From an uncultured virus (IMG/VR IMGVR_UViG_3300011691_000001) (lineage: Duplodnaviria > Heunggongvirae > Uroviricota > Caudoviricetes): DNA of 59,431 nt. Both the position numbers and the translations under genes were made by a program. Position 1 is the first letter of the stretch. Each line of letters starts with the position of its first letter. The DNA is taken from the IMG/VR virus record IMGVR_UViG_3300011691_000001. The stretch is one strand, 5' to 3'. Below are positions 2,687-51,827 of this stretch, piece by piece. The notes beneath the pieces were generated by a model that made no database searches, was not told the DNA's origin, and was given only the letters and a program-made list of their open reading frames with translations.

Positions 2687-3739
2687 GTGGTAGCTTTGAA
2701 TACAGTCAAGTTGGAAAATTATATCGGTGATCACATTGAAGCCTTCTTAAATGAATACAAATCAAATTCAATACACAGTTATAAGAGTTACAAAAGCAGC
2801 TTGAACAAATTATTTAAAGATATATTAAATAAAAGCGACTTTAAATTCATAACGGTTTCTGATATAGAAGGATTGACGGTACATGTATTAAAAGAATACT
2901 TCAATACGTTACATGAAGAAGTAAATACTGATGATGAACCGAAGCATAAAAATTCAACAATAAATAAGCACATTTCGGTTATAAAGAAGTTCATTGAGTA
3001 TTTAGCAGCTTGGGATATAATTTCATATGATGTAAATAAGCTATCACTACTTAAATTCTTCCCTGATACAAGAGAAGAAATTGAAATGATACCATTTGAA
3101 TTAGCAATGAAGTACACTTCTTACTTTAGAAGTGAGGATCAAGGGTTGGAAAAACAATTAATAATTAAATTAGCTATTGAAACTGCTCTTAGAGCAACCG
3201 AATTATTAGAGTTGAAGTGGAGTAACTTTACAGTTGTTGAAGATGGTGTAATCATGAAATCTCATGGAAATAATAAAGGTAAAGGGAATAAAGAGTGGAT
3301 TGATAAAATAAATAAAGAATTATACGAAGAACTTTTACATTTAAAGTACTTAGGGAATGATCATAAGTTATTTACTCTCACATACAAACAATTAACTGGT
3401 ATGATGGATAGAGGAAATGAACTTTTAAATGACACTGGAGTTAAATATTCATTCCATTCATTTAAAAAATTAGCTGTGACAATGTGTTACTTAAATAATA
3501 ACAACTGTATTGATACTGCAATGAAGAAAGCTCGTCACAGTAATGTTAATACGACTATGAGGTATCTTCGATTAACAAATTTAAATGTTACTGGTATAAT
3601 ATCATCTAAATTAAATACGGAACAAGATATTTATAAAACAGTATCATACGAATTACTTTTAGAAGCATTAAGTGAAATGCGTCCAGAAATGCTTCTACTT
3701 TTAAATAATAAAATAAAAAATAAGAAAAATAATATGTAA
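2687..3739 (+). CDS. tyrosine recombinase family protein (SPbeta YopP/SroD-like)
   Basis: ETALRATEL (R), KGK (K), FHSFKK (HxxK), ARHSN (H), TMRY (Y); first gene of the trio. Confidence 0.85.
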   Translation: MVALNTVKLENYIGDHIEAFLNEYKSNSIHSYKSYKSSLNKLFKDILNKSDFKFITVSDIEGLTVHVLKEYFNTLHEEVNTDDEPKHKNSTINKHISVIKKFIEYLAAWDIISYDVNKLSLLKFFPDTREEIEMIPFELAMKYTSYFRSEDQGLEKQLIIKLAIETALRATELLELKWSNFTVVEDGVIMKSHGNNKGKGNKEWIDKINKELYEELLHLKYLGNDHKLFTLTYKQLTGMMDRGNELLNDTGVKYSFHSFKKLAVTMCYLNNNNCIDTAMKKARHSNVNTTMRYLRLTNLNVTGIISSKLNTEQDIYKTVSYELLLEALSEMRPEMLLLLNNKIKNKKNNM

Positions 3740-3802
3740 TAATTAATGAAAAAATAATTACTAGATGATAAAATATCATTTGTAATTAAGGGAGGGAAAT
3801 TA

Positions 3803-5143
3803 ATGAAATTAGGTAAAGATAATGAACAATTAGAGATTGAAGTTAAAAGTTTAATAAATGCTTTTTCATCTAATGTAGACAAAGATGAAGTAGATTTAAT
3901 TGTTGAACACCTAAATATGAAACATGGTATTGAAAGTGCTAAGATTTATTCCTTATTTAACAATGTTAATAATGTAAGTAAGTTAGAATTTGAAGAGATT
4001 GCATTATTTGGGCAGCAATTAGTCGTTAAATTAGGAATGAACCAGAGTGAATGGATGAATGAATGGTTTACTGATCGTGAACAAAAAGAAATTGGTGGAT
4101 ATCAATTTGTAGGATCTTCATCAACAGATATTATTGATTTCCCAATGACAATTCATAATGTAACTGACTTAGGTGATGGTTATTATAATGCAACCCTGAC
4201 AAGAAAAGAATTGGCTAGATTATATAAATCAGGAAAGTTAGATTATAACGCCAATGTTCAACGTGGTATGAAGAAAGTTGTTCGGTTTGGCGTAGAAATA
4301 GAGAAGCCAATTATTTATCAAAGTAAAATTACTCAAATTAGAAATGAAATTTTAAAAGGTGTTTTAAGACCAACTACAATTACACTTAATGCACATCAAA
4401 TGACTGCTCTAGAAGGGGTAGAACTTGTATACGATGATAAAAATCATACTCTAAAAATAAATGAAGGTACTGTTTTAGATATTGTTGATGGAATGCATAG
4501 GCTATTAGGTAATTACAGTGCTTATAATAAAGACTCTAATATCAAAGGTTCTTTCCCAATAACAATTTCTAATAAATCAGATGCTGAAGTTAAGAGATAT
4601 CAAGTTGATCTGGATAAACATACTCCACTATCAAGAAGTCGAGTAGAAGAGTTAGATAATAAATCATATTCAAATGAAGTTGTGAATATTTTAAAAGTAG
4701 AGGGACAACTGAAAAATAGAATAACATCTGCAAGTGATGCTAAGTCATCTATAAAAGGTAGTGACTTTACGACATATAAGATAATTAATACGCAAATAAA
4801 TAATGTATTTAAACTAGAGAGTATATTAGACGCAAGAAAACTAGCAAAATCTATTAATGAATATTTGGTTTACTTATTTGGAATTTATAAAAAATATATT
4901 GTTAGTGATTATAACCTAATATTTGACGCAGATGTATTTGAAGGACACTTACATTTAATCAAGTTAATGAATGATGAAGGTGTATCTTATGAAAAGATAG
5001 AAGATATTATAGATATAAATGAATTCCATAAGTCAGAATCCAAATTAAGTAAAATTATTAATGGGAATATGAAATTAAATGCAAAAGACCGCAAAGCATT
5101 GATTAAATTATTTACAGATATGTATAAGAAAGGCGTGAAGTGA
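3803..5143 (+). CDS. DGQHR/DndB/ParB-fold protein (SPbeta YopQ/SroE-like)
   Basis: VQRG and IVDGMHRL motifs; synteny between two recombinase-fold genes. Confidence 0.75.
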   Translation: MKLGKDNEQLEIEVKSLINAFSSNVDKDEVDLIVEHLNMKHGIESAKIYSLFNNVNNVSKLEFEEIALFGQQLVVKLGMNQSEWMNEWFTDREQKEIGGYQFVGSSSTDIIDFPMTIHNVTDLGDGYYNATLTRKELARLYKSGKLDYNANVQRGMKKVVRFGVEIEKPIIYQSKITQIRNEILKGVLRPTTITLNAHQMTALEGVELVYDDKNHTLKINEGTVLDIVDGMHRLLGNYSAYNKDSNIKGSFPITISNKSDAEVKRYQVDLDKHTPLSRSRVEELDNKSYSNEVVNILKVEGQLKNRITSASDAKSSIKGSDFTTYKIINTQINNVFKLESILDARKLAKSINEYLVYLFGIYKKYIVSDYNLIFDADVFEGHLHLIKLMNDEGVSYEKIEDIIDINEFHKSESKLSKIINGNMKLNAKDRKALIKLFTDMYKKGVK

Positions 5144-6129
5144 TTATGTATAATGAGGAATACAAGAAATCATTTCTTGAAACATTAAATTTATCTGAAT
5201 CATCTTTGAAAACCTACTACTCAATATTTAATAAAACAGAACCGTTTGAACGAAAACATGAAACTGATTTATACGACATGGATAATTCCATGTTGGATCT
5301 ATTATTTAGGCAAGCGAAAAGACAAACAAAAAGGTCAGCAATTATATTTATTAATACTATTAAAAACTATATTACATGGGCAATTGATAACGGACATAGT
5401 GCTTCACCAACACACCCTATTGTAGATGTTATCAATGACGAATACGTTTCTACTTATGTATGGAATGCAGGTAAAAATTATTATAATAGAGAAGAACTAC
5501 TTAAAAAAATTGAATTACTGGATAACAACAGAGACATGGCTATTGTACTTTTATTGTTTGAAGGTATAGTTGGATCTTCATTTTCTGAAATAAGAAACTT
5601 AAGAATAGATGATATAACTACAAAAGATGATAAATTCTTTTTGAATGTACTTTCTGATGAAATAAACTTAACGAGTAGACAAATTGAAATTACAAAAGAA
5701 CTACATGATTTATTAATCAAAACATATAATACATCTGAAATAAAAAGTCCTAGTGGGAAAATGGCTCGATTAGTTGACGGGGAATATATATTTAGAAAAA
5801 ATAGACTTGGAAAAGATAATGATGTTCGTATAACTCCATCTATGATAAGTACTATAATAATGCAGCGAATAAAAGACTCATTTAGTGACAGTAACATTAC
5901 TGCAACTACTATAGAGATAAGCGGCATGATGTGGTATGCAAATGAATGGATGAACGAAAAGGGAAATCGAATCTTTGATTTAAATATTGTTGAAAAACTA
6001 GTTAAAAAATATAATTTAAGTACAATAAGCTTGAATAATAAAGAATATCCTCAGCTACAAAGGATCAGAGAAACAATGGATTTTGACTATATGCAAGATG
6101 AATTTGGTCACTTTGAAGTAAAAATATAG
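5140..6129 (+). CDS. MrpR (YopR/SroF)-like lytic-cycle master repressor, catalytically degenerate tyrosine-recombinase fold
   Basis: MYNEEYKKSFL N-terminus; LLFEGI..SEIRNLR lacks catalytic R and HxxR; synteny. Confidence 0.78.
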   Translation: MIMYNEEYKKSFLETLNLSESSLKTYYSIFNKTEPFERKHETDLYDMDNSMLDLLFRQAKRQTKRSAIIFINTIKNYITWAIDNGHSASPTHPIVDVINDEYVSTYVWNAGKNYYNREELLKKIELLDNNRDMAIVLLLFEGIVGSSFSEIRNLRIDDITTKDDKFFLNVLSDEINLTSRQIEITKELHDLLIKTYNTSEIKSPSGKMARLVDGEYIFRKNRLGKDNDVRITPSMISTIIMQRIKDSFSDSNITATTIEISGMMWYANEWMNEKGNRIFDLNIVEKLVKKYNLSTISLNNKEYPQLQRIRETMDFDYMQDEFGHFEVKI

Positions 6130-39022: not shown

Positions 39023-39061
39023 AAATAAGTACAAGTTATTTGAAATTACTTGTACTTATTT
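39023..39061. repeat. 14-bp perfect inverted repeat overlapping the recombinase promoter
   Basis: AAATAAGTACAAGT / ACTTGTACTTATTT; overlaps TTGAAA(39040)-N18-TATTAT. Confidence 0.7.
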
Positions 39062-39126
39062 GTTATTATTGTTGTATTGAACATAAATAAAGTGTTATAA
39101 AAAACATAATAAAGGGATGAGTCAAA

Positions 39127-41601
39127 ATGACATTAGAAGTCAAAGATATATTTTCTGTAGAAAATAAATATAGAAAATCAATAGAAAAGAATAGCAATAA
39201 TGGCTTTGGAAAAGAGAAGATAGTTATTGGAGTTCATAAACGTGTATCTACAGATAAACAATTTCAAGATGGTGATTCCTTAGAAATGCAACAGGAGTTA
39301 GCTAATAAACATGCAAATGAAATAGGAGGGGTTATTTACAAGTACTATGAAGAGAACGGGTTATCTGCTAAAAAGAACCCCCTTGATAAACGTCCAGTTA
39401 TGCAAGATATTATTCAAGACATAGAGGACGGAAAGATTAATTATCTCATTGCATATAGACGAGATCGATTGTTTAGAAACCAAGCTGAGAATATGTGGTT
39501 CTGGTCTTTATTAGCTGAACATGATTGTAAGATATTTCTAACTGCAAGTGGAGAGACACAAGTTAATATTGAGGAAATTAAAAAAGCAGGAACAACAAAA
39601 ATGATGGAATCCATTCTCGCCATGTTAGCAGAAATGGAATCAGAAATTACATCGACTCGTGTTTCAGATACAATGATTTCAAAAGCTAAAAAGGGAGAGT
39701 ATACAGGTGGTGCTACTCCAATAGGGTATGACAGAATTGAGGGGAGATTTGTTCCTAAAAATGGAGTGAAAGAGCTATTTTGTATGGTTGAGGATTTGTA
39801 TTTGCAGGGTTTTGGATTATTATCTATAGCCAAATGGTTAAATGGTGAAAAAGTAGCTGATCTACCGCAACTTGAATCTAGTATTAAAAAACCCATAGAC
39901 TGTCACAAGGATACATTATGGAATCATAGAAATATAAATACAATTTTATTTAATCCATTCTATACTGGTCATGTTTCATATCAAAGTAAGAAAAATATAG
40001 AAATGAATCGCATTATCAAAGAAGTGGACTATATTGAACCTATTAGAACATTAGAAAGACAAAAACAAATTAATTCATTTAAAAAGAAAAAAGAAGAGGG
40101 AAAGAAAGCTCCTAGAGCCTACAACACATCATTCTTATTGACAGGGTTACTTTATTGCGGTGAATGTGGGGCAAAAATGTTAGGGTCAACTACACAGAAA
40201 AAGGGTAGTGAAAAGAAGTATTGTTATTACAGTTGTCCTACTAAGAAGAGTTATTATGGTGGTGTGAAAAAATGTGAAAACGTACATTACAATAAAGATG
40301 TCCTTGAAGCTGTAGTGATAAAAGCAACAAAAGAAAAAACACAATTTATTATGTCAGATGATTTTTATAAAAAAGCAAGTAAAAAAATTAAAGACGATAA
40401 AAAGACTTATGCAAGTCAATATGATCTAATATCAGAAGAAGTTACTAAGAAAGAAAAAGAACTATCAAGATTGATAAAGATGACTACTCAAATAGAGGAT
40501 GTAGAATTGCAAAAGGTATATTTTGCTGAACAGTCCCAACTTATTACAAAAATAAATGAAATGAAAGATAGTATGCTGTTAGTTGCAGAAAAAGCAAACG
40601 GAGAAGTGAGTGATGATTTTAATTTTGAATCATTCGTTGAATTATCTAAAGACTACTCTAAAATGATTGGAGTAGCACCAATCGGAATTCAGAAACAATT
40701 AATTGAAAATCTATTTGCTGATATAAGAATAGATAAAAATGGAGAGGTGTCTATGCAATGGAATATAGGATTAGTTGAACTATTAGCTCCTGTAAAAGAG
40801 GTTGATGATAGTAATAATACTGACGAAGTTATGTTCTATACAACGGTAGGTTCGCCAATGGTTACAAAGAACATAATAAATCACCAACAGAATAATATGT
40901 CAGTTAAATTCAACTACCATAATGAATTAGTTGAAGTAGCTAATTTTATAACAGAAAGGTTTTACGATTTTATAGAAGGATATGATAAATATCTACATCC
41001 TAAAAATAGATCACTCCTCATTTCTAAAGACACACCTAGTAAAAAGAAAGATAAATTATCTGACAATTCCTATATGAAATACGTAATGAATAATTACGAT
41101 ATACCATATACATCCATTACACATTCATTTAAGAATGGATTATCTGCACCTTTCATAAATAAGATATTGGATGTATTAAACTTATCTGTGATTGACTTTA
41201 AAAAGTACCTTTTAGAAAAGCATTCATTTAATTTGGAAGAAGAGTCATTGACACATTATTTATACTTTGGAAGAGAAAAAAGAACAGAATACCACAAGAG
41301 AAGAAATCAAGAAAAAATGCAAAATAAAGTGTTCTTTAGAGGTAAAATAATTTGTCAAGGTTGTGGGGAATATATGTCTGTTAGAGGATTATCTGAAATG
41401 GTTAGATATTGTTGCAGAACGCACGATAAGAAAAATGATGAATGTAAAGGTAGAATGAAGACAATATCGCAGAGTAAAATATTGAATCATATAAAGGATG
41501 AAAAAGGTCTTGAATTATTGAATAAGACAAAAGCATTTGACACTATCCATCATATTTACTTGGAAATCGATGGATCGATCACAGTCAAATATAAAGATTA
41601 A
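39127..41601 (+). CDS. large serine recombinase (integrase) with extended C-terminus
   Basis: KRVSTDKQ catalytic Ser, RDRLFRN, recombinase domain, zinc ribbon GLLYCGECG..YYSC..C, coiled coil; extra ~270 aa with a second zinc ribbon. Confidence 0.92.
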   Translation: MTLEVKDIFSVENKYRKSIEKNSNNGFGKEKIVIGVHKRVSTDKQFQDGDSLEMQQELANKHANEIGGVIYKYYEENGLSAKKNPLDKRPVMQDIIQDIEDGKINYLIAYRRDRLFRNQAENMWFWSLLAEHDCKIFLTASGETQVNIEEIKKAGTTKMMESILAMLAEMESEITSTRVSDTMISKAKKGEYTGGATPIGYDRIEGRFVPKNGVKELFCMVEDLYLQGFGLLSIAKWLNGEKVADLPQLESSIKKPIDCHKDTLWNHRNINTILFNPFYTGHVSYQSKKNIEMNRIIKEVDYIEPIRTLERQKQINSFKKKKEEGKKAPRAYNTSFLLTGLLYCGECGAKMLGSTTQKKGSEKKYCYYSCPTKKSYYGGVKKCENVHYNKDVLEAVVIKATKEKTQFIMSDDFYKKASKKIKDDKKTYASQYDLISEEVTKKEKELSRLIKMTTQIEDVELQKVYFAEQSQLITKINEMKDSMLLVAEKANGEVSDDFNFESFVELSKDYSKMIGVAPIGIQKQLIENLFADIRIDKNGEVSMQWNIGLVELLAPVKEVDDSNNTDEVMFYTTVGSPMVTKNIINHQQNNMSVKFNYHNELVEVANFITERFYDFIEGYDKYLHPKNRSLLISKDTPSKKKDKLSDNSYMKYVMNNYDIPYTSITHSFKNGLSAPFINKILDVLNLSVIDFKKYLLEKHSFNLEEESLTHYLYFGREKRTEYHKRRNQEKMQNKVFFRGKIICQGCGEYMSVRGLSEMVRYCCRTHDKKNDECKGRMKTISQSKILNHIKDEKGLELLNKTKAFDTIHHIYLEIDGSITVKYKD
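40829..40876. other. candidate attP site inside the recombinase ORF
   Basis: 48-bp imperfect inverted repeat TTATGTTCTATACAAC-N16-GTTACAAAGAACATAA centred on a TC dinucleotide. Confidence 0.55.
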
Positions 41602-41663
41602 GTACTTTATTATCTCTTCAAACTATGCGAAAATTGTATAGCAGAAAAGGAGATTTTTTATAT

Positions 41664-42767
41664 ATGAACACTATAACTAAGCCATATGACACATGGGAGA
41701 GCTATCATGACATTGAGAAATATGGAAAACTAACTTTATCAAACATTGAATTTACAACTACAAATTTGTGTAATATGCGATGTGCTCATTGTGCGGTAGG
41801 CTATGCTTTAACAAATAAAGAAGCCCAATCGCTTCCAATTGATGATATCCTAAGACAATTAGATGAAGTTGATACCCTACGTACAATGAGTTTTACTGGT
41901 GGAGAGCCTTTATTAACTAAGAAGGGCATTAGAGATAATTTATTGCCACTTCTTAAATATGCCAAAAGTAGAAATATTAAAACACAAATCAACTCCAATT
42001 TAACTTTACCAATGGATCATTATGAATTGGTTGCTCCGTATCTTGACGTTATGCATATTTCTCATAACTGGTGTACTGAAGAGGAATTTGTTGAAACAGG
42101 GTTTGCTATGATGGAAAGAAAACCTCCAGTACAAAAGAGAGCCGAGCTATACAGAAACATTTTAGATAATGCTAGGGAACTTTCAAAGGGAGGTATGTTT
42201 GTATCTGCTGAAACAATGCTAAATCGTAACACAGTTCCTTATCTTGAGAAAATTCACAATGAAGTAGCTAATGAGATGAAATGTAAAAGGCATGAAATTC
42301 ACCCTATGTATTCGAGTGACTTCGCTGAAAATTTAGAAACTATAGGTTTGGATGAATACAGAGAAACAGTTAATAATATTCTAGACTTCAGAAATGAAGA
42401 TATTTGGATACTATTTGGTACATTACCTTTCTATGCTTGTAGTTCAGATAAGCGTGACTTAGACTTATTACAAAGAATTAACAATACATCTAATACTACA
42501 ATCAGAAATGATGTAGATGGTCGCTCAAGAATGAACCTAAACATATTCACTGGAGATATTTCAGTATCAGATTTCACTGATGATGGAGCAGCATTAGGTA
42601 ATATTAAAGAACAATCACTGATTAATATTTATGACAAGTGGTTAAATACTAACATTTCAAACAGTATCAACTGTCACTGTCCTGCTGTTAAGTGTCTTGG
42701 TTCAAATATCATTGTTAAAAATATGTACTATCCTGATAAAACTTTTGTTAGTGGGTCAGTAAAGTAG
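41664..42767 (+). CDS. yfkA: radical SAM/CxCxxxxC protein, YfkAB family
   Basis: IEFTTTNLCNMRCAHCAVG, SFTGGEP, TQINSNLT, LDVMHISHNW, CHCPAVKCLG. Confidence 0.9.
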   Translation: MNTITKPYDTWESYHDIEKYGKLTLSNIEFTTTNLCNMRCAHCAVGYALTNKEAQSLPIDDILRQLDEVDTLRTMSFTGGEPLLTKKGIRDNLLPLLKYAKSRNIKTQINSNLTLPMDHYELVAPYLDVMHISHNWCTEEEFVETGFAMMERKPPVQKRAELYRNILDNARELSKGGMFVSAETMLNRNTVPYLEKIHNEVANEMKCKRHEIHPMYSSDFAENLETIGLDEYRETVNNILDFRNEDIWILFGTLPFYACSSDKRDLDLLQRINNTSNTTIRNDVDGRSRMNLNIFTGDISVSDFTDDGAALGNIKEQSLINIYDKWLNTNISNSINCHCPAVKCLGSNIIVKNMYYPDKTFVSGSVK

Positions 42768-42887: not shown

Positions 42888-43193
42888 TTATAAAAGAAAG
42901 TTCCCAGTATCCTTTTTTTCTACAATTTCTGTTTGTTTAAAAGTAGTTGAAGTAGGGGAAATAGTGGTTTTATTTTCTCGAATACCAACTTCGCTTTCAA
43001 ATTTTTCTGCAATTAATTCCTTGCCAAGTCCACTAAAGGATGTAGAATGCATTAAAGCATATTTCAAAAGCTCCATTTGACGTTCACTTTCTTTATTAAA
43101 GGTGACTGCTTGAGTTATATACTTACCTTTAGTCTTCCTCTTCATCTCTCTAATCATTGCTTCGGCTTCTTCTTCTGATCTAAGATATCCCAT
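42888..43193 (-). CDS. ParR-like adaptor/DNA-binding protein
   Basis: Overlaps ParM stop; beta-helix-helix pattern KYITQAVTF...FSGLGKELI; GGAGG RBS. Confidence 0.6.
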   Translation of the reverse strand: MGYLRSEEEAEAMIREMKRKTKGKYITQAVTFNKESERQMELLKYALMHSTSFSGLGKELIAEKFESEVGIRENKTTISPTSTTFKQTEIVEKKDTGNFLL

Positions 43194-44016
43194 ATGCCGA
43201 CCTCCCTGAGTTATACATTCCAATTGCATTACACATTTTAGGATTTTCCATTACTTCTGCATTTGGAAAGAATTCTTTAACATACGTAACTAATTGAATA
43301 TCTAACGCTCCACCACCAAGAAGATATACAATATCGTGTTTACCCCACATTTTACATAACATTCCACAGATATAATCTGCCAATCCTTTGGGGCTATAAT
43401 TACCATCTAAAGCTTCTAATCCTACTCCAAAAAATGTATCACTTTCAGTATCTATAAATCTAATTACATCGCCTTCTTTTATTGTTGTGGCAGCACCAAT
43501 GGTACGTGATCCAAAATCTATGAATCTTGACTTTCCATTGGGTTCATTTATAAAAAATGCTGAAGCCGTTTCAGGAGCAACTTTTACTTCATTAATAGAA
43601 AAGGTTTTGGAAACTCCATTTATCATAATGGTATGCGATCCCTTGAGGCGTTGTAATCGACCATCTCTTTCTTGTAATGAATAGCTTTTTATTGGAACAG
43701 AAACAACAATGTTATTTGCCAAGTATCCATATTGATGTATTGCAATTAAGACAGACAAGTCATAAAACTCATGTTGTTTTGTTTCTGTATGCATTTGTAA
43801 GGGAAGGGTGCAATCATATTTAGCTAACATTCCTGCAACGTATTTCTGTCCTTTGTAGTCAACAATGAAATCATGTTTATGAGTTATTTCAGTTAGATTT
43901 CTTTTGCCGAAATATCCTTTAACACTAGGGAAATTTTCTTTCACATCTTTCGTTACAACACAAGTTGAATTGCCTCCGTCATCAATTGCAACTACTCCCA
44001 CAACATTGTTATTCAA
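43180..44016 (-). CDS. ParM/StbA family actin-like ATPase
   Basis: AIDDGGNST, VAPET, FIDFGSRT, LLGGGA, NAIG actin-fold motifs. Confidence 0.85.
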   Translation of the reverse strand: MNNNVVGVVAIDDGGNSTCVVTKDVKENFPSVKGYFGKRNLTEITHKHDFIVDYKGQKYVAGMLAKYDCTLPLQMHTETKQHEFYDLSVLIAIHQYGYLANNIVVSVPIKSYSLQERDGRLQRLKGSHTIMINGVSKTFSINEVKVAPETASAFFINEPNGKSRFIDFGSRTIGAATTIKEGDVIRFIDTESDTFFGVGLEALDGNYSPKGLADYICGMLCKMWGKHDIVYLLGGGALDIQLVTYVKEFFPNAEVMENPKMCNAIGMYNSGRSAYGIS

Positions 44017-50615: not shown

Positions 50616-51827
50616 TTACCGATTTACCTTCAGTTCCCATCTACAATCCATCCAAATCTCACTATTCTCACAATATTTCTTAATACTATCATTACTCACC
50701 TTTAATGACTTTCTTACTTCTGTTATACTATTCCATTCTTTTATCAATTCACCGTTTAGATTGAATTGTAATACTTTCTTGCTATTTTTCTTTCTTGCAA
50801 AATTAGTTTTCATTTCTAAAAATTCTTTATGGTCATAGTCAATCCATCCGTAACTAGAAGCTTGCTTTAAATATCTAGCAACTGTCGTTCTACTTATCTT
50901 TAGTAATTTGCCTATTTCACGAGAGCTAATAATACCGCTTCTATATAGTTCACATATTCTTAGAATGAATGACTTTGACGAATCTACAAATAAAACATCC
51001 CAATCAACAGATGAAATATCAATGATGTTATTTAAATCACTATTTATTATACTAGATTTTATAAAATTTAAATCATTATTTCTAGCATCTATAATTATGT
51101 AGTTTTTTATGCCGTTGTTTAATGCTAAATCCTGTTTATATTTGTCGTTATTTTGTATGCACTCTAACGGTTCATAACCCAGTTTAGTGTCTTGATAATG
51201 CTGTAAGCCATGTACTTCGATGATAGTTTGAAGGGAAGAAATATAAAAGTCGTACCTCTTTTTATCAGACCAAGGTAGCATCCTATCGTACTCAAAATCT
51301 ATACCCATATTATTCAATAAATTATATACTAACTTCTCACCACATGACCTATTATCTGAACATTTAGTACACCTTAATCCATAATATGTAGCTTTTTGTA
51401 TTGGATACCTCTTTACTATGTCTTTGCAATTTGGACATCTCCAGTCTACTTTAACAGTAGCTCCTTTTGAGTATTTATATCCATAATATGGATTATTTAA
51501 CATATTAGCTACTTCTGGGTTAGTAGTCCATAAATCATTATATCCAATCAATATTTTTTGATTTGAACAATAAGGACATCCTCTTCCTAATAAGTATCTG
51601 TTTGATACAACACCATTCCATTCATGTCCCTTCTCACAAACCCACCAAACTTTCTTATTACTTCCTTTTGTTATTGCATACACATCAAAACATAGCTCAT
51701 CATTCTTTTTAAAGTTCCACTCAATGAAGAATTGTGGTTTAGTTTTAACCATTGCATTATCTTTCAATTTACTTATTCTATTTAAATCTAATTCTTCTTT
51801 TGTTTGGGAATTTATATATTTATTCAT
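50616..51827 (-). CDS. zinc-ribbon/PD-(D/E)XK/NUMOD1 putative homing endonuclease
   Basis: KVWWVCEKGHEW..GCPYC repeats, RYDFY..IIEVHGLQHY, HTH, KVLQFNLNGELIKEWNSI. Confidence 0.7.
   Translation of the reverse strand: MNKYINSQTKEELDLNRISKLKDNAMVKTKPQFFIEWNFKKNDELCFDVYAITKGSNKKVWWVCEKGHEWNGVVSNRYLLGRGCPYCSNQKILIGYNDLWTTNPEVANMLNNPYYGYKYSKGATVKVDWRCPNCKDIVKRYPIQKATYYGLRCTKCSDNRSCGEKLVYNLLNNMGIDFEYDRMLPWSDKKRYDFYISSLQTIIEVHGLQHYQDTKLGYEPLECIQNNDKYKQDLALNNGIKNYIIIDARNNDLNFIKSSIINSDLNNIIDISSVDWDVLFVDSSKSFILRICELYRSGIISSREIGKLLKISRTTVARYLKQASSYGWIDYDHKEFLEMKTNFARKKNSKKVLQFNLNGELIKEWNSITEVRKSLKVSNDSIKKYCENSEIWMDCRWELKVNR

Follow-up and report, generated by a model that had tools for sequence, protein, structure and literature searches.

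Integration into host yfkA splits a large serine integrase gene that carries the attP of a phage of Lysinibacillus-type bacteria, next to an intact phage yfkA

Temperate phages of the SPbeta SprA and phi3T type are large, use a large serine recombinase (LSR) and insert inside a host protein-coding gene, with a phage attachment site (attP) that has inverted repeats and a short core (PMC8270828; this and the other papers given by PMC number are cited from excerpts). The same applies to the phage analyzed here, represented by 59,431 nucleotides of DNA from an uncultured virus of the Caudoviricetes (IMG/VR record IMGVR_UViG_3300011691_000001; hereafter, the window). Its attP lies inside the open reading frame (ORF) of its own LSR-type integrase, integration into yfkA of Lysinibacillus-type hosts splits both genes, and an intact phage yfkA stands beside the C-terminal module of the integrase (C module; Table 1). 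In SPbeta, by contrast, attP is located in the space between sprA and sprB, the genes of the integrase and its directionality factor, and the excerpted source describes no spare spsM but restoration of this gene by excision (PMC8270828), whereas the window phage carries a spare yfkA. Unlike SPbeta-type enzymes, the window integrase has an extra module of 247 residues that is removed on integration.

A literature search for a serine integrase with attP in its own gene, with subscription journals and bioRxiv supplements outside its reach, gave only DsiB of the Dehalococcoides ssrA islands, a serine recombinase whose gene always overlaps the left junction (attL) at its 3' end and which might, according to its authors (McMurdie 2011), require the circular element for full function (PMC3146451). 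These islands differ from the window phage in that they are small, sit at the tmRNA gene and encode a CcrB-like enzyme with a short, divergent overlapping tail and, as far as the excerpt goes, neither a folded conserved module nor a replacement gene (PMC3146451). The tyrosine integrases of SSV-type archaeal viruses have the att site within the integrase gene as well, but there integration splits the enzyme itself, whereas the canonical enzyme of the window stays whole; the design of an att site inside the integrase gene, which the review in question calls exclusive to archaea in the form of "suicidal" integrases, is now found in a bacterial phage with serine chemistry (PMC8371274). Mycobacteriophages with integration-dependent immunity also have attP in a phage gene whose free and prophage products differ at the C terminus, but this gene encodes the repressor, whose product loses 20–35 residues, and integration is by a tyrosine enzyme, all unlike the window phage (PMC8092301). 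Our literature search returned no paper that combines an exchanged module of this size and fold, its predicted seat on the surface bound by recombination directionality factors (RDFs), a protein-coding target and, in a phage of >120 kb, a spare gene that is complete and under selection. For myxophage Mx8, a tyrosine integrase (IntP/IntX) with the att site inside its gene has reportedly been described as well.

The yfkA/yfkAB family also serves as the bacterial attachment site (attB) of Staphylococcus aureus prophages phiSA169, ASZ22RN and phiST9-A (PMC12323379, PMC11852059, PMC12282191), which differ in that they insert between nucleotides 30 and 31, at its 5' end, and replace, according to the excerpts, at most N-terminal codons. 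Their integrase is of ordinary size (348 codons in the phiST9-A record), far smaller than the 824-codon enzyme of the window, and our guess from this length is that it is a tyrosine enzyme. Perkons, a large phage of Psychrobacillus that is related and has a core of 18 bp, was considered as a further case of the same system and dropped; the term "radical SAM" is absent from its paper.

A first-pass annotation, made by a model from the letters of the window, had proposed a 48-bp imperfect inverted repeat inside the integrase gene as attP. This repeat is real: its arms (40829–40844 and 40861–40876; 16 nt each, separated by a 16-nt spacer) are complementary at 13/16 positions (81%), and the outer 9 bases are perfectly paired. 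Symmetry about the central TC extends to 16/23 positions, which no other place in the window exceeds and which 5 of its 59,371 possible centres reach (background mean 6.5, sd 2.2), just one of them within the integrase gene. The homologous sites of two relatives are symmetric at 14/23 (G002) and 12/23 (L006) positions, compared to 6/23 for attB. With its length of about 50 bp, its imperfect inverted repeat and a short core in common with attB, the site looks as LSR attP sites generally do. Codon 576 of the ORF (TCG, Ser) begins with the central TC, and attP lies at codons 575–577, in agreement with the annotated position around codon 575 and just beyond the end of a normal LSR: the integrase of Geobacillus virus E3 aligns up to residue 575, and the canonical fold in our AlphaFold2 (AF2) model ends around residue 553. 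On the minus strand, the centre reads TTGGCGAACCTACC, exactly as annotated, and the crossover dinucleotide TC corresponds to GA of the Glu codon in the TGGEP motif on the yfkA strand of the host.

The annotation had predicted from this reading that host yfkA carries the core. We collected host yfkA loci with a degenerate pattern for the codons of LKTLSITGGEP and obtained 27, titled as Lysinibacillus (22), Solibacillus (two), Macrococcus, Thermoactinomyces and an "uncultured Bacillus sp." metagenome-assembled genome (one each). All 27 carry GGNGGNGARCC at TGGEP, where the bases are fixed by the search pattern itself, and what the loci add are yfkA-like codons beyond the core. The host site of locus L017 reads GGCGGCGAACCTATG, which is close to the predicted sequence. 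In host locus L012, the gene downstream of yfkA is convergent.

Insertion at this place is directly visible in a lysogen. We scanned 370 genomes that GTDB places in the same family as L. fusiformis ATCC 7055 with the N-terminal part of the integrase (N part). A single one matched (G041; E 1e-147, 44% identity), and its prophage splits yfkA, as the annotation had it, at the Glu codon of TGGEP, with the two halves of the host gene now about 157 kb apart (Table 1). Both G041 junctions contain the shared core GGAGAAC. Joined by script, the host halves form an open 379-codon yfkA, meaning that precise excision would restore the host gene, and the phage halves form an in-frame integrase; in the attP inferred for this lineage, the outer inverted repeat is perfect over 10 bp and has GA of the Glu codon at its centre.

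Junctions from the window's own lineage agree. Provirus contig L003, whose integrase is 85% identical to that of the window over residues 1–579, tracks the window to 40857 and then diverges, and its last 36 bases match yfkA of L. fusiformis ATCC 7055 at 36/36 positions and reach as far as GGAGAACC; its classing as a provirus by IMG/VR explains why it goes no further than the stop codon that ends the truncated integrase. Logan contigs of three runs from three sequencing studies (X2, X9 and X10; 90–99% like the window) run from the integrase start to 40857 and continue into opposite-strand, yfkA-like sequence (80% like 41722–41821), which is the 5' part of host yfkA and therefore identifies the right prophage junction (attR). 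In an X2 contig of 3,491 bp and an X9 contig of 99,553 bp, the match to the window begins at 40849 and is preceded by 30 bases that are antisense to the 3' arm of L012 yfkA, so this junction is attL; the two overlap at attP by 9 nt. Both contigs run on through the C module and the phage yfkA, which adjoin each other in X2 record 15 and X9 record 20. The integrase is thus split at the predicted place in G041, L003 and the contigs of X2, X9 and X10, and no lysogen was found with a junction at a second palindrome of the window (39023–39061) and an intact 824-codon ORF.

On a rival reading, the repeat within the integrase ORF is palindromic by chance only, and the real attP would be this second palindrome or the A+T-rich repeats after the phage yfkA (42760–42875). 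These repeats do exist, and five centres of the window share the same symmetry score, but every junction found maps to 40849–40857 or its homologue and none to 39023–39061, which looks like a terminator. We give this reading next to no chance; the junctions of G041 and of X2, X9 and X10 rule it out, barring misassembly. The palindrome itself has 19-bp arms that are 95% complementary, is followed by a T-rich run and lies between the dihydrofolate reductase operon and the integrase; a promoter-like TTGAAA-18-TATTAT with TG (39040–39069) overlaps it.

Table 1. Features of the integrase–yfkA locus in the window and of the prophage in lysogen G041.
Feature	Sequence	Position	Strand	Evidence or remark
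Full-length (excised-state) large serine integrase, 824 aa	Window	39127..41601	+	ORF; Pfam Resolvase, Recombinase, Zn_ribbon_recom (two stretches)
Integrase N part, residues 1–577: catalytic domain, recombinase domain, zinc ribbon plus coiled coil; retained at one end of the prophage	Window	39127..40857	+	E3 alignment, AF2 model, lysogen contigs
attP, 48-bp imperfect inverted repeat	Window	40829..40876	.	Symmetry and lysogen junctions; attL/attR overlap 40849–40857 (GGTTCGCCA); central dinucleotide TC 40852–40853
Integrase C module, residues 578–824 (247 residues): helical domain, second zinc ribbon, beta hairpin; goes to opposite prophage end	Window	40858..41601	+	Zn_ribbon_recom, AF2, Foldseek
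Phage-borne intact yfkA/yfkB-type radical SAM gene	Window	41625..42767	+	Pfam; conserved copies; adjoins integrase C part
Host yfkA residues 1–96	G041	3244247–3244543	+	Abuts integrase N part
Integrase N part	G041	3244591–3246252	-	
Prophage body	G041	~157 kb		
Phage yfkA, intact	G041	3399578–3400717	-	93% identical to window copy
Integrase C part	G041	3400779–3401444	-	Adjoins host yfkA 3' part
Host yfkA residues 89–378	G041	3401473–3402339	+	

What the window represents is a large temperate phage in its unintegrated (attP) form; relatives are the G041 prophage and a circular record of 121.9 kb (G002, L004/L009; 121,875 bp with a terminal overlap of 127 bases) whose 828-aa integrase spans attP. 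The start of this record coincides exactly with the first base of the att core, GTTCTCC, which as circumstantial evidence fits a branch of the assembly graph at the core, as would be expected from a mixture of free and integrated forms; contig break points may mark att sites where such mixtures occur in a sample. The virus record nearest to the window, G001, lacks the integrase region. No relative came from a scan of genome contigs with integrase peptides, and a scan of metagenome contigs with the 30-base host arm of L003 gave no match but also missed the source contig of L003.

Integration splits host yfkA around residues 94–96, and the C module ends up about 120–157 kb away from the N part. 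The form of the integrase left in the prophage is the canonical enzyme followed by 9 to ~35 unrelated, variable residues that are read from antisense yfkA. By Pfam, the integrase belongs to serine recombinase families and has no tyrosine recombinase chemistry: residues 39–191 match the resolvase-type catalytic domain (PF00239, 5.2e-21), and there are matches to PF07508 (Recombinase) and PF13408 (zinc ribbon). R39-V40-S41 is invariant in 9/9 aligned integrase sequences, with S41 being what we take to be the nucleophilic serine. The E3 integrase, its best match among deposited phages, aligns with residues 19–575 only (34% identity). In the full-length AF2 model, which has a predicted local distance difference test score (pLDDT) of 69.7, long helices (411–490) are inserted between the zinc-ribbon strands as a coiled coil, a low-confidence linker (556–590) follows the canonical fold and holds the attP codons, and the C module occupies residues 592–824. 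Judged by its sequence, the N part is therefore the canonical enzyme whole, with every canonical LSR domain retained after integration.

The fused ORF is kept in relatives of the window phage (824 aa in the window, 821 aa in L006 and 828 aa in G002), with N parts that are 42–56% identical and C parts that are 23–30% identical. Zn_ribbon_recom is found in the C module of all four members, and an AF2 model of the module alone (12 sequences) reached a pLDDT of 80.8. Compared with the PDB by Foldseek, it best matches the DNA-binding region at the C terminus of the Listeria LI integrase bound to attP (6dnw_A; E 2.6e-4 over 208 columns, template modelling score ~0.3), followed by chains of Bxb1, so that by its predicted structure the C module resembles a second recombinase DNA-binding region. 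With a HMMER profile built from four C modules, 85 matches at E<=1e-3 were obtained among 1.84 billion representative proteins. They include seven fused clusters (811–845 aa), which match the profile around residues 566–845, and five stand-alone clusters of 225–257 aa, which begin at the core position, several of them with MV.K.I like M578 of the window, and are what gene callers would produce from lysogens. A previous similarity search with residues 578–824 had found no match among proteins of 453–1442 aa, its word index being blind to relatives of 23–30% identity that HMMER found later, and a scan of viral contigs with the C module gave no relative either. P0003, P0005 and around 25 further stand-alone proteins of 100–115 aa match only the zinc ribbon and terminal hairpin of the module (profile ~159–247), with P0005 being 65% identical to the last 113 residues of the window integrase; these may reflect fragmented gene calls or else form a family of free mini-proteins.

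RDFs bind the DNA-binding domain DBD2 of LSRs at the coiled-coil junction, a surface that C-terminal extensions may block (PMC12286644). We modelled residues 196–555 with 590–824 as a complex (two parts of one chain with our own 9-row alignment, three runs and three controls) and obtained an interaction score from predicted aligned errors (ipSAE) of 0.61, a mark that 116/157 solved complexes but only 2/215 mismatched pairs reach. The best control scored 0.00, the runs have at least 94% of their contacts in common, and the partner pLDDT is no lower than 77. In the modelled interface, residues 388–404 and 530–550 meet 591–598 and 704–714, with strand 591–598 (FNY) pairing with hairpin 538–545 and residues 388–404 at the junction of zinc ribbon and coiled coil. 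Y597 in this strand is invariant in 9/9 sequences and the sole invariant residue of the module that is not a cysteine.

A role of the C module outside of recombination would be that of a separate DNA-binding regulator whose synthesis depends on the free state through a translational fusion that spans attP; the result would be a switch governed by integration, similar to the attP-in-repressor arrangement of mycobacteriophages but with the opposite sign. That attP can lie within a regulatory gene, which is then truncated at attL, is an established finding in these phages (PMC8092301), and the C module indeed evolves much faster than the N part and has its own helical domain and zinc ribbon. Yet its only family signal is that of a recombinase zinc ribbon, its best structural matches are DNA-binding regions of LSRs, and its predicted docking on the zinc-ribbon domain of the integrase uses precisely the invariant Y597, so that we consider a separate regulator quite unlikely.

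We instead propose that two isoforms of the integrase would report the integration state of the phage, the 824-aa form being made only from free DNA and the truncated form from the prophage. The 824-aa isoform would perform integration, with its C module packing the FNY strand (Y597) and a helix on the zinc-ribbon domain at the coiled-coil junction, where directionality factors bind, and this packing would bias the enzyme toward attP x attB recombination. The truncated isoform of the prophage would expose the directionality-factor surface and respond to an excision factor, while the phage yfkA would make up for the disrupted host gene. Taken as a whole, this two-isoform switch with yfkA compensation is the best explanation that we can offer, and we rate its chances as even. 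That the C module modulates directionality or activity, as the structural models would have it, is a possibility that we hold slightly less probable than its opposite. The stricter version, in which direction would be set by the integration state of the integrase's own gene, with the module occupying the directionality-factor site and locking the integration mode, its removal arming factor-dependent excision and the spare yfkA turning an invariant radical-SAM motif into a cost-free landing pad, seems rather doubtful to us.

Several observations weigh against the two-isoform switch or its parts. A full-length form that ignores the RDF could re-integrate after excision, which would be awkward for the lytic cycle, and the score of the complex is the model's own confidence, which supports a plausible packing of the C module but not regulation. 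Codons of the GSP/GEP type (G-[RSG]-S-P) are present at the core in only 4/8 aligned fused sequences; going by sequence, the other four members may have different targets. No contig bridging attP was found in runs X2, X9 or X10, and the run closest to the window (X1), which gave six small contigs of low depth and none of them across the core, is too fragmented to count for or against. The plus strand of 40858–41625 contains no promoter-like site, and their overall number (23) does not exceed expectation (24.7). Finally, an ATG stands straight after the core in the window lineage (M578, 40858) but not in G002 and G041.

This ATG is also relevant to a further alternative, that the truncated enzyme of the prophage is inactive or "suicidal" in the SSV manner and that excision would require either a C module translated from its own ATG and acting in trans or an undivided integrase encoded by another copy. 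For split integrases of the SSV type, excision is considered to depend on the presence of a complete gene (PMC8371274), several stand-alone forms (MV.K.I) share the ATG with the window lineage, and the predicted interface would let the N part and the C module associate in trans. On the other hand, residues 1–577 hold all canonical LSR domains, and relatives of normal length such as the E3 integrase stop there; G002 and G041 have no start codon after the core, and no ribosome-binding site is evident ahead of ATG 40858. We therefore judge an inactive prophage enzyme improbable and prefer the switch between two working isoforms.

Such a switch would matter beyond this phage family. LSRs are genome-engineering tools valued for their controlled direction, and the effect of C-terminal extensions is an open question in the field (PMC12286644). 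The window family supplies two natural isoforms for comparison, only one of which has the 247-residue module predicted to sit on the directionality-factor surface, and the question is directly testable because attP, attB, attL and attR are known and lysogens exist.

The annotation had also pointed to an intact yfkA next to the integrase with GGEP codons that differ from the core, which is accurate: the TGGEP of this gene is encoded as ACT GGT GGA GAG CCT at 41898. Its product matches Radical_SAM (PF04055, 3.1e-13) and YfkB (PF08756, 1.8e-67), and the CxxxCxxC motif is encoded as tgt aat atg cga tgt gct cat tgt. The true start is, from sequence context, likely the ATG at 41664 behind aaaggag, which would give a protein of 367 aa, near the 370 aa of host YfkA (L012). 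By the annotation's supposition, the phage copy would not be targetable; its place equivalent to attB shares the central GA and 30–33 of 55 bases with host sites. Among phages (window, L004, L005, L006 and G041), the encoded proteins are 86–95% identical, and the ratio of nonsynonymous to synonymous substitution rates (dN/dS) is 0.04–0.08 at a dS of 0.65–1.5 (window, L004, L006 and G041), which is a mark of strong purifying selection at the sequence level.

With an intact copy located beside the C module, lysogens keep one whole yfkA, and we find it somewhat probable, going by these sequence comparisons, that the phage gene compensates for the disrupted host gene. It might instead encode a diverged radical SAM enzyme with a role of its own that is swapped for the host version on integration: phage YfkA is only 58–59% identical to host YfkA and yet highly conserved among phages whose integrases are merely 42–56% identical. 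We regard this as unlikely, though less so than a separate regulatory role of the C module, given that phage YfkA has the two-domain architecture and length of host YfkA and that its gene neighbours, in 4/4 relatives with context, the att site at which the host gene is disrupted. If the phage yfkA does compensate, a complete, selected spare gene would be a fuller repair of the target than the usual replacement of a gene end. Matches to yfkA in Staphylococcus phages were considered as further phage-borne copies and dropped; the phiST9-A paper puts the prophage beside host yfkA, and the "putative radical SAM protein YfkA" at 3965–5110 of its record (OQ578993; our L002) is the host gene adjoining the prophage. 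As this record ends in host yfkA, phage records cut from chromosomes can carry host flank.

The window as a whole has a G+C content of ~30%, and it includes matches in PHROG to a DNA polymerase, helicase, primase, ribonucleotide reductase, sigma factor, FtsK-like protein, endolysin and tail and head proteins, with additional Pfam matches to thymidylate synthase and dihydrofolate reductase. Two tyrosine-integrase-like genes (2687–3739, phrog_1, and 5140–6129, phrog_5830) flank a 446-aa ORF with unassigned function (3803–5143, phrog_5732), so that together with the serine integrase the phage has three recombinases; the cluster at 2687–6129 could serve in dimer resolution or represent a mobile element nested in the phage. 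Close to the att region, just beyond yfkA, an actin-like (ALP_N) partition protein is encoded on the minus strand (43180–44016), which hints that the 120–157 kb genome may also segregate as an episome. Amid the late genes lies a 403-aa ORF resembling HNH/homing endonucleases (50616–51827, minus strand).

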